Shown piece after piece: positions 5,120 to 52,405 of a DNA stretch of 57,741 bases. Position 1 is the first letter of the stretch; each line of letters starts with the position of its first letter. The DNA lies in IMG/VR virus record IMGVR_UViG_3300042516_002128, positions 1-57,741 of that record, one strand, 5' to 3'. Source of the DNA: a virus (Duplodnaviria; Caudoviricetes). A model generated the notes under the pieces. The model did not search any database and was not told the DNA's origin. It saw only the letters and a program-made list of their open reading frames with translations. Position numbers and translations under genes: made by a program.

Positions 5120-5131
5120 ATATTTATATAT

Positions 5132-9519: not shown

Positions 9520-9709
9520 TTAATTCTTGGTCGATTAATTGTTGTTTATAAACCGCTTTTAATTTTTGACTTCTTCTAACAACTGAAGGTTTAGTAAACG
9601 ATTGACGTTCTCTTAATTTTTCAGTTTGTTTAGTCTTTTGAACCTTGTATTTGTACTTTTTAAGTGCAGATTCAAGGTTTTTTTCTTTGATTACGTCTAT
9701 TATTATCAT
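9512..9709 (-). CDS. rpsU: Phage-encoded 30S ribosomal protein bS21
   Basis: From ATG 9709: MIIIDVIKEKNLESALKKYKYKVQKTKQTEKLRERQSFTKPSVVRRSQKLKAVYKQ (65 aa). ALK+YK, LRER-F-KPS-RR pattern of bS21, with Bacteroidota-like KAxY tail. Confidence 0.92.
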   Translation of the reverse strand: MIIIDVIKEKNLESALKKYKYKVQKTKQTEKLRERQSFTKPSVVRRSQKLKAVYKQQLIDQELIN

Positions 9710-9803
9710 ATTTTTTTTAAAGATAAGAAAATTATTTTGATTTTCTAAGTTAATTGTGTATATTTTAAATACACCATAAATTATGTAAGTATGAAAACAG
9801 CAA

Positions 9804-39696: not shown

Positions 39697-39722
39697 TAAT
39701 CAAATTTTTTTCTGTATATTTT

Positions 39723-48439: not shown

Positions 48440-48616
48440 TTAATCTCCGTAGATATCTTTTTTCTTTGGTATTTCAATGGATTTATCTTCTTTACAAGTT
48501 TCATCAATCCACTTCTGAACAATTTTATAAATTTTTAATCCTTTTTTATCGCAATATTCTTTTAACATCTTGTGATGTTTCTCACTAACCTTGATGTTTT
48601 TGGTGGTATTTTCCAT
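48440..48616 (-). CDS. Small ribbon-helix-helix-like DNA-binding protein
   Basis: KNIKVSEKHHKMLKEYCDKKGLKIYKIVQKWI. Confidence 0.65.
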   Translation of the reverse strand: MENTTKNIKVSEKHHKMLKEYCDKKGLKIYKIVQKWIDETCKEDKSIEIPKKKDIYGD

Positions 48617-48752
48617 GATAAAGATAAATATTGACACTAAAAGATAAATTAGTGTCTATAAGTATATTTTTTCAAAAAATCAAGTAAATCTTTGCTAAAA
48701 ACAAAGATATTTATAGAAAAGTAATAAAATAAATTAACCAAACAAGAAAAAA

Positions 48753-51596
48753 ATGGCAAATTCAAATAGAGTATTTGTGTCTCCAGGTGTGTACACATCG
48801 GAAAAAGATTTATCATTCGTAGCACAAAGTGTTGGGGTGAGTACATTGGGGTTAGTGGGTGAAACTTTAAGAGGTCCCGCTTTCGAACCAATTTTAATAA
48901 CAGATTTCGATGCGTTCAAATTATATTTTGGAGGTACATCACCTGAAAAAGATGGTAATAACAATCCAAAATATGAACTACCTTATGTTGCAAAAGCATA
49001 CCTTCAAGAATCTAATCAATTATTCGTAACAAGAATTCTTGGTTTAACAGGATATAAACCAGTTAAAACATTCGCGATTCAAACAATCGGTGGTGTTGAG
49101 GTTGGTTCATTAAGTGGAACCACATCAGGAACAACAATTCCATCAACAACAGGTATTACAGGTAGTACTTTCTACACTTTCTTATCAGATAAGAAAGCTT
49201 ATGATGGTAACACAATTACTGACTACATTGTTACAAACTTTAGTGGTAACACTTCAAGTAATAATAACGATTGGTTTGTTTTGGGTAATGTACCGTTTTC
49301 AGGAACATCAGGTTTAACTGGTACTGAGGTTATCTCACCATTGACAGGTTTGGACAATGCAAATAATTACAACTCAAAAGAGTGGTACAATACATTAGTT
49401 AATACGGCGGGTGATGAAGTTTACTCATACCTATTCGTTTATAATAGTGGAACAAGTAGATTCAATGTTACAGAATACACATATAATGCAACTACATATA
49501 GTGATTATGATGGTCAAGTTGTTGTTGCTTTCAGGTCAAGAGGTTCATACGCTGGTCAAACTTTAAATTTGGAAGTTACTGCGAACTCTAACTTTAATAT
49601 TTCTGGTTCAGATTTAGTGGTTAATCCATTAGCTGAATTTACACTTAATGTAACAGGTTCAACAAGTGGAGCTAAAACATTTACTTGTAGTTTAGATACG
49701 TCATCATCAAAATATGTTACAAAAGTTTTAGGTAATAGTGTGTATGATAAATCAAAAACTGATATTCCGATTTATGTTTATGAATCTTACCCAAATTATT
49801 TATTAAAAGCGTTTCAACAAGGTTATATTAGAGGTATCAGTTTAACTGAGGTATATAATACAGAAAACAATAACTTCTTAACAGAATGGGATACTCCAAT
49901 GTCACCGACTGTTGTTTCTGAAGTTAGAGGTGGTAACGTTGCAGATTTATTTGAAGTAATTACAATTTCTGACGGTGAGGGTGCTAACACACAACTTAAA
50001 ATTATGGTCATGAACATTGATATTGATACATATGAATTTGACCTTTTAGTTCGTGAATACTACGATACTGATGACAATATGGTTGTTCTTGAGAAATTTA
50101 CAAGATGTTCAATGAATCCGGATGTTCCGGGTTATATCGCTAAGAAAGTTGGTACATCAGATGGTGAATATGAATTGAATTCAAAATACATCATGTTGAA
50201 TATGGCTAGTAATCACCCAACAGATGCTTACCCTTCAGGATTCAAAGGTTTTGTGAATAACTCAAACTTTGGTGGTAGTACTGTAGGTTCTGTTATGTAC
50301 AAAACGGAGTACTATATTGCTGGTGATGTAACGGGATACAATTCTGATGGTTCACCAATTACAACTTCAGGTGACACAATTAGAAAAGTATGTTTAGGTT
50401 TCTCAACTCAATCAGGTTATGATGATGATTTGTTAAAATACAAAGGTAAGGCGGCAACAGATACAACTAAAGGTTTCCACTTATCAACAAACGCATCAAC
50501 AATTACAGGTACAACATATCTAACAACACCATACGATTTAGAAGGACAAACAGGAGCAGATAATTTCTTAACAAATATCAACAACCGTAAATTTACATTA
50601 GCATTATGTGGTGGATTTGATGGTTGGGATATCTATAGAAATGTAAGAACCTATGGAGATAGTTATATCTTCGGTAAGAAAACTTATGTTTCAGGTAACA
50701 CAGCTAATGGTGGTGTGTTCAGTACAGTAGCAACAAGTCCAAACTCTGACTACTATTCATACATTAAAGGTATTGATACTTTTGGTAACCCTGAAGCTGT
50801 TGATATCAACATATTCGCAACACCGGGTATTAATTTCTATGACCATAGTTCATTAACTTCTTACGCAATTGATATGGTTGAACAAGATAGAGCGGATTCA
50901 CTTTATGTAATTGGTTCACCAAACTACAGTACAGTTGATGAGGTGGTTGGAGCTTTAGATGGTGTGGCAATGGATACAAACTATTCGGCTACTTACTTCC
51001 CTTGGATTCAAATTAGAGATGTGGATAACGCAACTCAACTTTACATTCCACCAACAGGTGAGGTAGTAAGAAATATAGCGTTAACAGATAACGTATCATT
51101 CCCATGGTTCGCAGTCGCTGGTTATTCAAGAGGTTTGGTTAATTCAATTAAAGCAGTTAAGAAATTAACACTTGATGAAAGAGATGAACTTTATAAAAAC
51201 AGAATTAACCCAATTGCAACATTCTCTGATACTGGTACAATTATTTGGGGTAACAAAACACTTCAAGTAAGAGAATCAGCACTTGATAGAATTAACGTAA
51301 GAAGATTGTTATTAAGAGCAAGAAAATTAATTTCAGCAGTTGCAGTTAGATTGATATTTGAACAAAATGACGAACAAGTTCGTAATGAGTTCTTGAGATT
51401 AGTAAATCCAATATTAGACGCAATTAAGAGAGAAAGAGGATTATTTGATTTCCGTGTAACGGTTTCTAGTGACCCAGCTGATATAGATGCAAATACATTG
51501 AGAGGTAAAATCTTTATTAAACCTACTCGTTCACTTGAATTTATTGATGTTGAATTCATTATTACACCAACAGGGGCTTCGTTTGATAATATTTAA
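48753..51596 (+). CDS. Contractile tail sheath protein (gp18-like)
   Basis: VSPGVYTSEKD start; PWFAVAGYSRG, INPI, WGNKT, RINVRRLL, IKPTRSLEFI. Confidence 0.95.
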   Translation: MANSNRVFVSPGVYTSEKDLSFVAQSVGVSTLGLVGETLRGPAFEPILITDFDAFKLYFGGTSPEKDGNNNPKYELPYVAKAYLQESNQLFVTRILGLTGYKPVKTFAIQTIGGVEVGSLSGTTSGTTIPSTTGITGSTFYTFLSDKKAYDGNTITDYIVTNFSGNTSSNNNDWFVLGNVPFSGTSGLTGTEVISPLTGLDNANNYNSKEWYNTLVNTAGDEVYSYLFVYNSGTSRFNVTEYTYNATTYSDYDGQVVVAFRSRGSYAGQTLNLEVTANSNFNISGSDLVVNPLAEFTLNVTGSTSGAKTFTCSLDTSSSKYVTKVLGNSVYDKSKTDIPIYVYESYPNYLLKAFQQGYIRGISLTEVYNTENNNFLTEWDTPMSPTVVSEVRGGNVADLFEVITISDGEGANTQLKIMVMNIDIDTYEFDLLVREYYDTDDNMVVLEKFTRCSMNPDVPGYIAKKVGTSDGEYELNSKYIMLNMASNHPTDAYPSGFKGFVNNSNFGGSTVGSVMYKTEYYIAGDVTGYNSDGSPITTSGDTIRKVCLGFSTQSGYDDDLLKYKGKAATDTTKGFHLSTNASTITGTTYLTTPYDLEGQTGADNFLTNINNRKFTLALCGGFDGWDIYRNVRTYGDSYIFGKKTYVSGNTANGGVFSTVATSPNSDYYSYIKGIDTFGNPEAVDINIFATPGINFYDHSSLTSYAIDMVEQDRADSLYVIGSPNYSTVDEVVGALDGVAMDTNYSATYFPWIQIRDVDNATQLYIPPTGEVVRNIALTDNVSFPWFAVAGYSRGLVNSIKAVKKLTLDERDELYKNRINPIATFSDTGTIIWGNKTLQVRESALDRINVRRLLLRARKLISAVAVRLIFEQNDEQVRNEFLRLVNPILDAIKRERGLFDFRVTVSSDPADIDANTLRGKIFIKPTRSLEFIDVEFIITPTGASFDNI

Positions 51597-51605
51597 TAAA
51601 ATAAA

Positions 51606-51634
51606 ATAAAAAGGGAAGGTGTAAAAACCTTCCC
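51606..51634 (-). terminator. Hairpin with U-tract on the minus strand
   Basis: GGGAAGGT-GTAAAA-ACCTTCCC; the A-run lies on its left, so a U-tail exists only for leftward transcripts. Confidence 0.6.
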
Positions 51635-51642
51635 AACTTATA

Positions 51643-51658
51643 TGTTCCACAAGAAACA
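51643..51658. promoter_or_regulatory. parS-like 16-mer
   Basis: TGTTCCACAAGAAACA, 14/16 to the bacterial parS TGTTCCACGTGAAACA. Confidence 0.45.
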
Positions 51659-51703
51659 AAAAAAGTATAAAAAAAATAAAATTATATTACCCAGTATTTA
51701 TGC

Positions 51704-51797
51704 TCCAGTATACTAGAACTAGTATTTTATTATCTAGTAATCTTTTAACTAGTTTTAATAATCTAGTTAATTTATTTCTAGTACTGGATACTAGTAT
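51704..51797. repeat. Phased CTAG palindrome array / nested inverted repeats
   Basis: CTAG at 51713, 51719, 51734, 51749, 51763, 51778, 51791. Confidence 0.8.
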
Positions 51798-51916
51798 AGG
51801 AAAAAATACGAAATTTTTTTGACATAATCAAGTATTTCGTAAAAAAAAATTATTTTTCAATAGTTGTATATTTATAGGTAAGGTAAATAAAAAAAAATTA
51901 AAAACAAAATATAGAC

Positions 51917-52405
51917 ATGGCAGATTTATTAATGAAAATGCCGGTTCCATACGAACCGAAAAGAGTTAACCGTTTCATACTTAGATTCCCTTCTTCATTG
52001 GGTATCAACGAATGGTATGTGGCATCAACGGCTAGACCAAGTGCAAAAATCAATTCAGTAGCAATACCATTCATCAATACATCAACTTATGTTGCTGGTA
52101 GATTCGAATGGAATGAACTAAGAGTAACATTTAAAGACCCAATTGGACCTTCAGCGTCACAAGCGTTGATGGAATGGTTCCGTTTACATGCGGAGTCTGT
52201 AACAGGTCGTATGGGTTACGCTGCTGGTTATAAGAAAGACATTGAATTGGAAATGTTAGACCCAACGGGTGTTGTTGTTGAGAAATGGATTCTTCAAGGT
52301 ACATTCTTAACTGACTTGAACTTCAACGAACTTGATTATTCAAGAGATGATATTGCAACTATCACAGCGTCTTTACGTATGGATAGATGTATTCAAGTTT
52401 ACTAA
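51917..52405 (+). CDS. Tail tube protein (gp19-like)
   Basis: YEPKR.NRF, YVAGRFEW, LMEW, YKKDI.LEMLDPTG.VVEKW.L.G; follows the sheath gene. Confidence 0.9.
   Translation: MADLLMKMPVPYEPKRVNRFILRFPSSLGINEWYVASTARPSAKINSVAIPFINTSTYVAGRFEWNELRVTFKDPIGPSASQALMEWFRLHAESVTGRMGYAAGYKKDIELEMLDPTGVVVEKWILQGTFLTDLNFNELDYSRDDIATITASLRMDRCIQVY

Follow-up and report, generated by a model that had tools for sequence, protein, structure and literature searches.

Here, we report that the 320-nt gap between the tail sheath and tail tube genes of a Caudoviricetes contig (IMG/VR record IMGVR_UViG_3300042516_002128; gap of interest, 51597–51916) is a conserved, gene-free module of bS21-type freshwater jumbo phages, present in one copy per genome of about 300 kb. 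The whole stretch analyzed, 57,741 bases at 31.9% G+C, is called the window throughout. The module may be a genome-level, cis-acting DNA docking site of some kind, not a structured RNA or an ordinary gene-control region; we hold this reading tentatively, at a probability of about 0.4, because the gap is unique, conserved and free of genes, keeps a motif that is otherwise purged from the genome and holds a host centromere word. Within this reading, a replication origin would be an unlikely outcome, and a partition or condensation platform centered on ParB, without origin function, a still less likely one. To our knowledge, nothing is known of how replication starts or how the DNA is organized in these bS21 phages, which are abundant in lakes and have genomes of up to about 300 kb. 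A unique module with a host centromere word would be a natural first target for finding the origin, and it would let one test the use of host ParB by lytic phages outside Bacillus.

Conservation and Anatomy of the Sheath–Tube Gap

Relatives were collected by a protein-guided scan of IMG/VR, in which 594 tube-protein loci were found and the best 80 of the 594 (88–100% identity) were used, and further ones were added by a pattern scan of viral contigs. The comparison set consists of 85 distinct intervals, each running from the stop of the sheath gene to the start of the tube gene; 78 lack an open reading frame (ORF; 253–379 nt) and seven have inserted genes. The gap alignment and the hairpin survey used 55 distinct gaps, and the column-identity comparison used 93 distinct loci. 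Below, L numbers denote relative loci and G000–G003 relative genomes, of which G002 is complete (310,542 bp) and G001 measures 288 kb.

In an ORF-based gene list the gap is the longest of the window, as a preliminary description of this DNA had stated; a small gene lies in each of the two gaps that follow it in length (316 and 284 nt). PHROGs confirmed the flanks named there, i.e., tail sheath on the left (48753–51596; PHROG 23, E = 9e-56) and tail tube on the right (51917–52405; PHROG 4542, E = 4e-23), the baseplate hub being next. Since the window encodes a bS21 ribosomal protein (9542–9700, minus strand) and a family-B DNA polymerase, we placed it in the group of freshwater phages with a bS21 gene that PMC9723584 defines. 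In the main text of that paper none of the terms intergenic, promoter, non-coding, origin and GC skew occurs, and our literature searches turned up no published account of a module in the sheath–tube gap. The nearest isolates by tube protein (36–41% identity) have sheath–tube gaps of only 45 and 94 nt, which indicates that the module is specific to the clade; a nucleotide search of a phage collection gave one match, in sheath-coding sequence, to a cyanophage.

The order of parts is fixed across the alignments: from left to right, a terminator, a palindrome, an AT-rich linker, an array between two arms, a block that we call M6, and a T-run with a promoter (Table 1). In the right half the alignment consensus reads CCCAGTAT, a variable AT-rich center, ATACTGGG, then M6, the T-run and ATATTTATA. 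The earlier idea of a non-coding element thus holds, and the element is conserved among the 85 distinct relatives. A 40-aa ORF at 51700–51822 was considered as a coding sequence and rejected, being broken by the 14- and 16-nt spacings of the array and by length changes among relatives.

Table 1. Parts of the sheath–tube module and their positions in the window
Feature	Position	Strand	Sequence and remarks
Intrinsic terminator	51597–51634	minus	stem GGGAAGGT (51613–20) / ACCTTCCC (51627–34), loop 51621–26
Decayed parS-type palindrome	51643–51658	none	TGTTCCACAAGAAACA; 14/16 against TGTTNCACGTGNAACA, two central mismatches
AT-rich linker	51659–51689	none	reads TTTTTATA on the minus strand; conserved TATAA and TTATA words; 7/8 match to TATTTATA
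Left arm	51690–51711	none	CCCAGTAT (51690–97) and CCAGTAT (51705–11), both CYAGTAT boxes
CTAG-core array, seven boxes	51713–51797	none	flank consensus ATACTAGTAT; degenerate 15/29-nt tandem repeat
Right end of array	51782–51797	none	right arm TACTGGA (51782–88), palindrome ATACTAGTAT (51788–97)
Block M6 (34 bp)	51801–51834	none	AAAAAATACGAAA-N5-TTGACA-N2-ATCAAGTA; best-conserved non-coding stretch
T-run and promoter word	51851–51876	plus	TATTTATA at 51869–76, promoter of the tube gene, 48 nt before ATG 51917

A parS-Type Palindrome beside the Terminator

A partition site had been one of the guesses of the preliminary description, and it proved apt by way of a palindrome that was not flagged there: the word at 51643–58 occupies the position at which some relatives have an exact host-type parS. 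Palindromes were scored against TGTTNCACGTGNAACA, a consensus taken from PMC7022226; the excerpted text of that source gives TGTTNCACGTGAAACA as the chromosomal parS consensus and describes binding to half-parS. Among the 85 intervals, seven carry the exact word and 15, 26 and 18 differ from it at one, two and three positions, respectively, and none of 1700 shuffles came within two mismatches. The consensus of the relatives is ATGTTCCACGTGGAACAT, and the exact palindrome is found once in G002.

On the host side, the exact word is present in one to three copies in 32 of the 41 genomes of the order to which one freshwater Flavobacteriales genome belongs (control 0). In the eight regions inspected, a gene of about 623 aa, which we take to be gidA/mnmG from its N-terminus, has most of the copies at its ends. 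By its letters, the palindrome of those relatives that carry the exact word is the parS of Flavobacteriales chromosomes, and the window copy is its worn positional homologue. This worn copy may no longer bind; its left half (GTTCCAC) is an intact half-parS. Together with the intact relatives it offers a natural comparison of decayed and intact sites. Domain searches found no ParB_N in G000, G001 or G002 and no AAA_31 or CbiA in G000–G003. Because the phage has no ParB_N domain, any ParB binding at this site would need the ParB of the host.

A CTAG Array Kept in One Place

Direct counting confirmed the seven CTAG in 82 bp on which the preliminary description was built: they start at 51713, 51719, 51734, 51749, 51763, 51778 and 51791, i.e., at spacings of 6, 15, 15, 14, 15 and 13 nt. 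The window as a whole holds 46 CTAG, where base composition would give 170 and a Markov estimate 84, and no other 100-base stretch of it contains three or more. The pattern CTAG-N9-13-CTAG-N9-13-CTAG matches four times in the window, each time in the gap, and in none of 100 dinucleotide shuffles. Tandem Repeats Finder reports 51717–51783 with a period of 15 (4.4 copies) or 29 (2.3 copies), the units being degenerate (66–76% matches). G002 gives the same picture, with 176 CTAG vs 291 expected and the gap (seven CTAG) as its only stretch with at least four in 120 nt; the phased triple is restricted to the gap in G001, G002 and G003. This under-representation in the window and in G002 is strong and consistent with pressure from CTAG-cutting restriction enzymes of the host; a CTAG-specific enzyme of this kind occurs in Bacteroides.

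In the 78 ORF-less intervals the CTAG number ranges from 0 to 11 (8, 1, 13, 17, 9, 4, 3, 13, 5, 1, 2 and 2 intervals, in ascending order of the count), and 69 of the 78 have at least two vs about 0.25 expected from the CTAG rate of the window. Spacings between neighbors peak at 6, 9–10, 15–16 and 30 nt across the relatives, so that the 15-nt phasing, the conservation of which had been set as a check, is limited to the subgroup of the window. Boxes (CYAGTA / ACTRG) are present in both orientations, and L036, L039 and L047 form a lineage whose array runs the opposite way with respect to its flanks. The array is hypervariable, and near-perfect tandem triplications (31 nt × 3 in L037, 30 nt × 3 in L047) suggest that it grows and shrinks through tandem duplication. 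Most relatives keep CCCAGTA/TACTGGG as the outer pair; it is changed on both sides to CCCGGTA/TACCGGG in L052 and L060, the right and left sides of L124 carry TACCGGG and CCGGT, respectively, and in L080 CTAG has become CTAT in both arm copies together. Few motifs are, like this one, kept at one place and selected against elsewhere in the genome, and the array would be a convenient handle for the pull-down of a partner protein.

A scan of bacterial contigs for phased CTAGT arrays gave at least 120 matches; of the 80 listed, eight Bacteroidota loci were inspected, and they proved to be 15-nt repeats in coding sequence or simple repeats, with no AT-spaced array and no host counterpart among them. 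One Bacteroidales genome contig (L290, 6880–7100) has tandem CCAGTAC/CTAGTAC heptamers that resemble the CYAGTA box, probably an unrelated simple repeat. It was also seen that CT[AG]GAAC, which occurs in the array arms (e.g., L012 and L076; window 51713–51719), is one base from the parS half-site GTGGAAC. Outside parS there are 96 such boxes in the 78 intervals, where 2.0 would be expected, and lineages without parS have hardly any. We did not build on them as parS-related boxes, for that flank is missing from most CTAG boxes and the distribution goes with clades.

Block M6 and the Promoters of the Gap

M6 is under purifying selection: in mean pairwise identity over the 93 loci, most M6 columns and the promoter reach at least 0.9, vs 0.61 at third and 0.88 at first codon positions of the tube gene. 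Its consensus in the relatives is AAAAAAnTACGAAA-N5-TTGACA-N3-TCAAGTA. The core is found exactly once each in G000, G001 and G002, matches with one mismatch being at control level; among the 80 listed matches of the pattern in viral contigs, 45 have a tube gene about 105–120 nt downstream and the other 35 lie in unrelated contigs with 0–2 CTAG nearby. M6 was not found in 121 genomes of the host order. Its distance to the promoter clusters at about 50 and about 60 bp, one helical turn apart. An inverted repeat that had been noted across this block (TACGAAAT at 51807–14 and ATTTCGTA at 51834–41) is present, but it is kept only in the nearest relatives.

Plus-strand genes are preceded, at a distance of 11–50 nt, by the word TATTTATA, 11 of whose 15 occurrences fall between genes; in front of minus-strand genes its complement is found. 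The tube gene thus has a promoter of its own at 51869–76 and the sheath gene one at 48708; in 85 of the 85 distinct relatives the word stands within 80 nt of the tube ATG. On the coding strand it is the reverse complement of the T4 late word TATAAATA. At 5121, 6946, 39316 and 53423 it is only 3–4 nt before the ATG, which suggests leaderless or near-leaderless late mRNAs. The TATTTAT at 51695–701, earlier taken for a late motif, exists, but it is TATTTATG and not TATTTATA, is not kept by the relatives and looks like chance. A second, host-type class (TTG-N17-21-TAnnTTTG) was found in upstream gaps of the complete relative, 23 times in sense and five times in antisense. Such TAnnTTTG promoters serve other genes, e.g., the one at 39717 before the DNA polymerase.

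A Proposed DNA Docking Module

If the gap is a docking module, its parts may work together as follows. Candidate proteins that read the boxes and M6 would assemble on the AT-rich array; leftward transcription across the array, halted by the minus-strand terminator, would help to open it. The site of host-ParB type is intact in some relatives and worn in the window phage; where it is intact, the ParB of the host would load beside the array, as ParB does beside bacterial origins. In its fullest form, which we consider quite doubtful, the module would be the center of replication and genome organization in a widespread clade of these phages, i.e., a transcription-activated origin with the CTAG boxes as iterons of a phage initiator, next to a copy of the host parS. 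The phage would then imitate the origin-proximal layout of its host and borrow the host ParB, and thereby condensin and ParA, and the borrowed ParB would sort or compact replicating phage genomes. The fast gain and loss of CTAG boxes, within a genome that purges the word elsewhere, would be a trade-off between the strength of the origin and exposure to CTAG-cutting restriction enzymes.

Several observations weigh against this model and against docking in general. The array is dispensable in some relatives: eight of the 78 ORF-less intervals have no CTAG, and L102 keeps M6 with neither array nor palindrome. A parS-like site is missing from 19 of the 85 intervals (at least four mismatches, or none found), and the palindrome of the window, taken alone, is not significant, since 22 of 100 window shuffles match equally well. 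It does count for docking that CTAG number rises with the quality of the parS: mean counts fall from 7.7 through 5.6, 4.0 and 3.2 to 2.7 for zero, one, two, three and at least five parS mismatches (the single interval with four has seven), but this correlation (Spearman rho −0.49, uncorrected for relatedness) may only reflect two or three clades. There is no initiator-type gene next to the module, and no partner protein has been identified for the boxes or M6.

Nor does strand composition point to the module. The cumulative GC skew of G002 has its minimum at about 40–54 kb, at a gene-strand switch, and rises to about 235 kb; the largest steps (263.5, 231.7, 53.8 and 41 kb) follow gene-strand switches. 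The step at the module (59.3 kb) ranks 185–456 of about 2,900 positions, so the inflection that had been looked for there is absent from this complete relative, the nearest gene-strand switch and local skew minimum being about 5 kb away. Please note that replication of the T4 type need not leave a skew, and that a strand switch or skew shift marks three T4 origins, not all.

The leftward promoter read in M6 is also non-canonical. The preliminary description had read M6 on the minus strand as a promoter, TTG-N20-TATTTTTT, and this sequence is indeed there. The −7 element of Bacteroidota, as given in the excerpted text of PMC6847099, has a near-invariant G at −5 and almost never a G at −10 or −9. 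M6 lacks the G at −5, all relatives have T there, and many have G at −10. TAHHTTTG does not occur in the gap on either strand, and TAnnTTTT is not enriched upstream of G002 genes (five sense vs four antisense). Read as a minus-strand promoter, M6 fits no promoter class of the phage. The linker, which on the minus strand reads TTTTTATA, might serve as an alternative leftward promoter or start.

A Small Non-Coding RNA as an Alternative

The first rival, which we regard as unlikely, is a gene for a small non-coding RNA. Its transcript, about 190 nt long, would run leftward from a start next to M6 (about 51797 to 51603), with the CUAG-box array as its 5′ domain and the minus-strand terminator as its end; through the repeated boxes it would bind a multimeric RNA-binding protein or titrate it, as sponge RNAs do, without a fixed fold. 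The terminator is one argument for it. The A-run at 51597–51612 gives a U-tail for a leftward transcript only, and the terminator also closes the sheath gene; a terminator scan, in agreement with the preliminary description, found the hairpin (51634–51613, tail TTTTTATTTT) on the minus strand only. A hairpin is present in 46 of the 55 distinct gaps, with differing stem sequences, and at least six A in the 10 nt upstream are found in 39 of the 46 and at least six T downstream in 17 of the 46; a tail on the minus strand only is seen in 11 of the 46, namely the window and 10 further distinct relatives, in a survey whose hairpin finder absorbs some A/T runs into stems. The L034 group favors the plus strand, yet its terminator is minus-only. 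A second terminator-like hairpin, also on the minus strand (51941–51959, TCGGTTCGTATGGAACCGG followed by CATTTTCATT), lies within the first 45 nt of the tube gene.

Other features fit such an RNA as well. M6 adjoins the right arm at 8–17 nt in 54 of the 62 relatives measured, the expected position of a start site. The number of repeats varies as in sponge RNAs, and 6–7 nt is a frequent box spacing (24 of the 137 from one CTAG to the next). Six of the 85 relatives have an inserted leftward gene. Contigs of RNA libraries cover 51576–51743 in four of four runs, and one contig spans 51752–52306; these contigs carry no strand and DNA carry-over is possible, which also tempers any use of them for leftward transcription in the docking model. 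The part at 51744–51911 is uncovered in runs X4 and X5 and nearly so in run X2, which is not informative on expression. All in all, terminator polarity and the inserted leftward genes lend indirect support to ORF-less leftward transcription; the unit proposed earlier may thus exist.

The folding data are less favorable to an RNA. The segment 51600–51800 does fold better than shuffles, on the minus strand (−47.1 kcal/mol, z = −4.6) and on the plus strand (−42.1, z = −4.0), and single-sequence folds of 46 distinct arrays have mean z values of −2.7 (plus) and −2.6 (minus). Stability on both strands would be expected of any array of palindromic words. The outer stem proposed earlier (TCCAGTATACTAGAA at 51704–18 with TTCTAGTACTGGA at 51776–88), the inner stem (TTAACTAG at 51745–52 with CTAGTTAA at 51763–70) and the palindrome ATACTAGTAT are all in place, but the multibranch fold made of them is not conserved and shows no covariation. 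In ten close relatives, 66.0% of the cells of these stems are paired vs 63.3% in shuffles, with four two-sided changes vs 3.3. For the 19 arrays of the largest subgroup RNAalifold gave −0.5 kcal/mol on the plus strand, −2.5 on the minus strand and not one compensatory pair; in that subgroup the two arms are direct repeats, TATACTGGAACTAGATA. In a second subgroup, of eight sequences, the prediction consists of an outer stem of 7 bp (CCCAGTA/TACTGGG) and an inner one (plus −16.8, minus −11.0), and only the outer stem is changed on both sides, in one of the eight, to CCCGGTA/TACCGGG. The covariation by which the fold was to be checked is thus missing, and what is conserved appears to be a sequence word, not pairing. 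A search of Rfam with 51400–52100 (E-value mode) reached 22.1 bits at best vs a gathering score of 49. Choosing the strand by G-U vs C-A mismatches was tried and dropped as inconsistent, with wobbles of the palindrome going both ways; the array folds are more stable on the plus strand in 34 of 46 and on the minus strand in 12 of 46.

Besides the lack of a conserved structure or Rfam family and the non-canonical promoter, four observations speak against this RNA. In the L036/L039/L047 lineage the array stands without a terminator, which makes a discrete RNA impossible there. Boxes facing both ways and a flipped array alter the sequence of an RNA and not that of a DNA site. The parS reading accounts for the palindrome within the unit, and L102 keeps M6 without an array. 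A repeat RNA of the type III antitoxin (ToxI) kind was also rejected. Such systems consist of near-identical tandem repeats, a terminator and then a toxin gene; here the repeats are degenerate, no gene follows in 78 of the 85 intervals, and the inserts are lipase-, transpeptidase- and endonuclease-like.

Inserted Genes and a Possible Late-Gene Insertion Slot

Equally unlikely in our judgment is a late-gene junction that has turned into an insertion slot, composed of the sheath terminator, control elements of the tube promoter (M6 and the T-run), a weak leftward promoter of phage type in the linker, at the service of inserted accessory genes, and CTAG repeats as slippage-prone filler that has no specific partner. 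The gap is indeed an insertion hotspot, with genes in seven of the 85 intervals (L158, L165, L141, L217, L150, L070 and L036), on the minus strand in six of the seven. L158 and L165 hold GDSL lipase/acylhydrolase-like genes, L141, L217 and L150 YkuD L,D-transpeptidase-like genes, and L070 an endonuclease-like gene on the minus strand. Two inserts are endonuclease-like, a kind that moves between phages, with zinc fingers and a REase_MTES_1575 domain. In one YkuD locus a pair of genes, each of about 230 aa, stands in tandem, and Pfam scores the family in the first alone; L047 has a seeming remnant of the 5′ end of the gene inserted in L070. In L158 and L165 the insert lies between terminator and palindrome, starting 4–5 nt from the palindrome and without a promoter word of its own, and the linker word stands about 35–45 nt before its start codon. 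The helical-turn step in the distance between M6 and the promoter would suit control of the tube gene, and arrays that change by tandem duplication and are absent from some relatives would suit filler.

CTAG is nonetheless avoided genome-wide yet concentrated in 69 of the 78 intervals, which indicates selection, not filler, and arms and boxes are conserved as sequence. The module is unique; other late genes that are equally strong, the sheath gene included, have no such region. A host parS would have no obvious role in the control of the tube gene.

Packaging Site and Chance as Improbable Alternatives

A packaging (pac) site, in which repeated boxes around an AT-rich center are bound by the small terminase, is highly improbable. 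The pac site of P1 has seven hexamers, and the single copy per genome, the box clusters at both ends of the array and CTAG as a possible methylation target would all fit. Against it, no terminase gene lies near the module within the stretches inspected, no unique pac site is known to be required by phages of the T4 type, and G002 ends with a 99-nt overlap typical of circular assembly and thus maps no physical end. Chance, i.e., an AT-rich spacer with incidental palindromes, is negligible as an explanation: AT-rich DNA does give many weak inverted repeats (29 pairs were listed in the 320 nt of 51597–51916), but phased CTAG appeared in 0 of 100 shuffles, the region is conserved in 85 distinct relatives and it is the only such cluster in 310 kb.

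Neighboring Genes

At 9520–9803 the bS21 gene forms a minus-strand island inside a run of plus-strand genes, and in the gap upstream of it we found by eye, on its own strand, TATTTAAA, one base from the phage promoter word. To the left of the sheath gene, a conserved gene for a 58-aa, ribbon-helix-helix-like protein (48443–48616, minus strand) is transcribed away from it; its Pfam matches are below cut-off (RepB-RCR_reg, 17.1 bits; ParG, 16.0 bits). The gap at 48617–48752 has two to three AAGATA repeats, an inverted TATCTT and ATCTTTG-N7-CAAAGAT, which overlaps the sheath promoter word TATTTATA; a host-type −7 word, TATCTTTG (minus strand, 48709–48702), stands back to back with that promoter. 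The gene looks like an early autoregulator that might also gate the late promoter of the sheath gene. Its product was considered as the protein that binds the CTAG boxes and set aside, given that the gene is present in relatives without arrays and that its own upstream region has the AAGATA repeats and no CTAG boxes.

Comparison with Known Systems

The origins of phage T4 are a useful comparison, here in terms of sequence layout alone. According to the excerpted text of PMC3016281, oriE consists of an early promoter and evenly spaced direct repeats of unproven role, and oriF and oriG of a promoter and a replaceable AT-rich unwinding element. The module lies in a tail-gene neighborhood of T4 type, and its conserved promoter-like block adjoins a variable AT-rich stretch whose short repeats are evenly spaced in the window, though not across the relatives; transcription from the block would oppose the late genes. 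The unwinding element of T4, in that excerpt, tolerates replacement, as the array does in L102. The boxes here, however, are 5–7-nt words with a CTAG core in both orientations, not 12-nt direct repeats as the excerpt has them for oriE; the promoter-like block is outside the host consensus and the promoter classes of the phage; there is no shift in strand composition at the module; and a dedicated terminator and a parS adjoin it. The analogy to T4 origins drawn in the preliminary description thus fits in layout, a promoter with an AT-rich or iteron region.

For the parS word, the closest known cases are the virulent Bacillus phages phi29 and Nf, which in the excerpted text of PMC2731898 carry host-type parS bound by the host Spo0J (ParB), with five sites on phi29. 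As there, the parS word found on the chromosomes of the presumed host group is present, exact in relatives of the window, on a phage of lytic type without a ParB of its own. It differs from phi29, as excerpted, in having one site per genome instead of five and in a host group, Bacteroidota, that forms no spores, so that a rationale of entrapment in the spore does not apply; the site of the window also has two central mismatches and forms part of a larger module that comprises the CTAG array and M6 as well.

Iteron-type origins and centromeres include lambda ori, P4 ori/crr, the omega heptads and the ParG boxes. R6K gamma is named among the origins of this type in the excerpted text of PMC3016281. 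In contrast to them, the module has no initiator or centromere-binding gene adjacent to it. It shares with them short boxes, direct and inverted and variable in number, separated by AT-rich spacers and set beside an AT-rich region.

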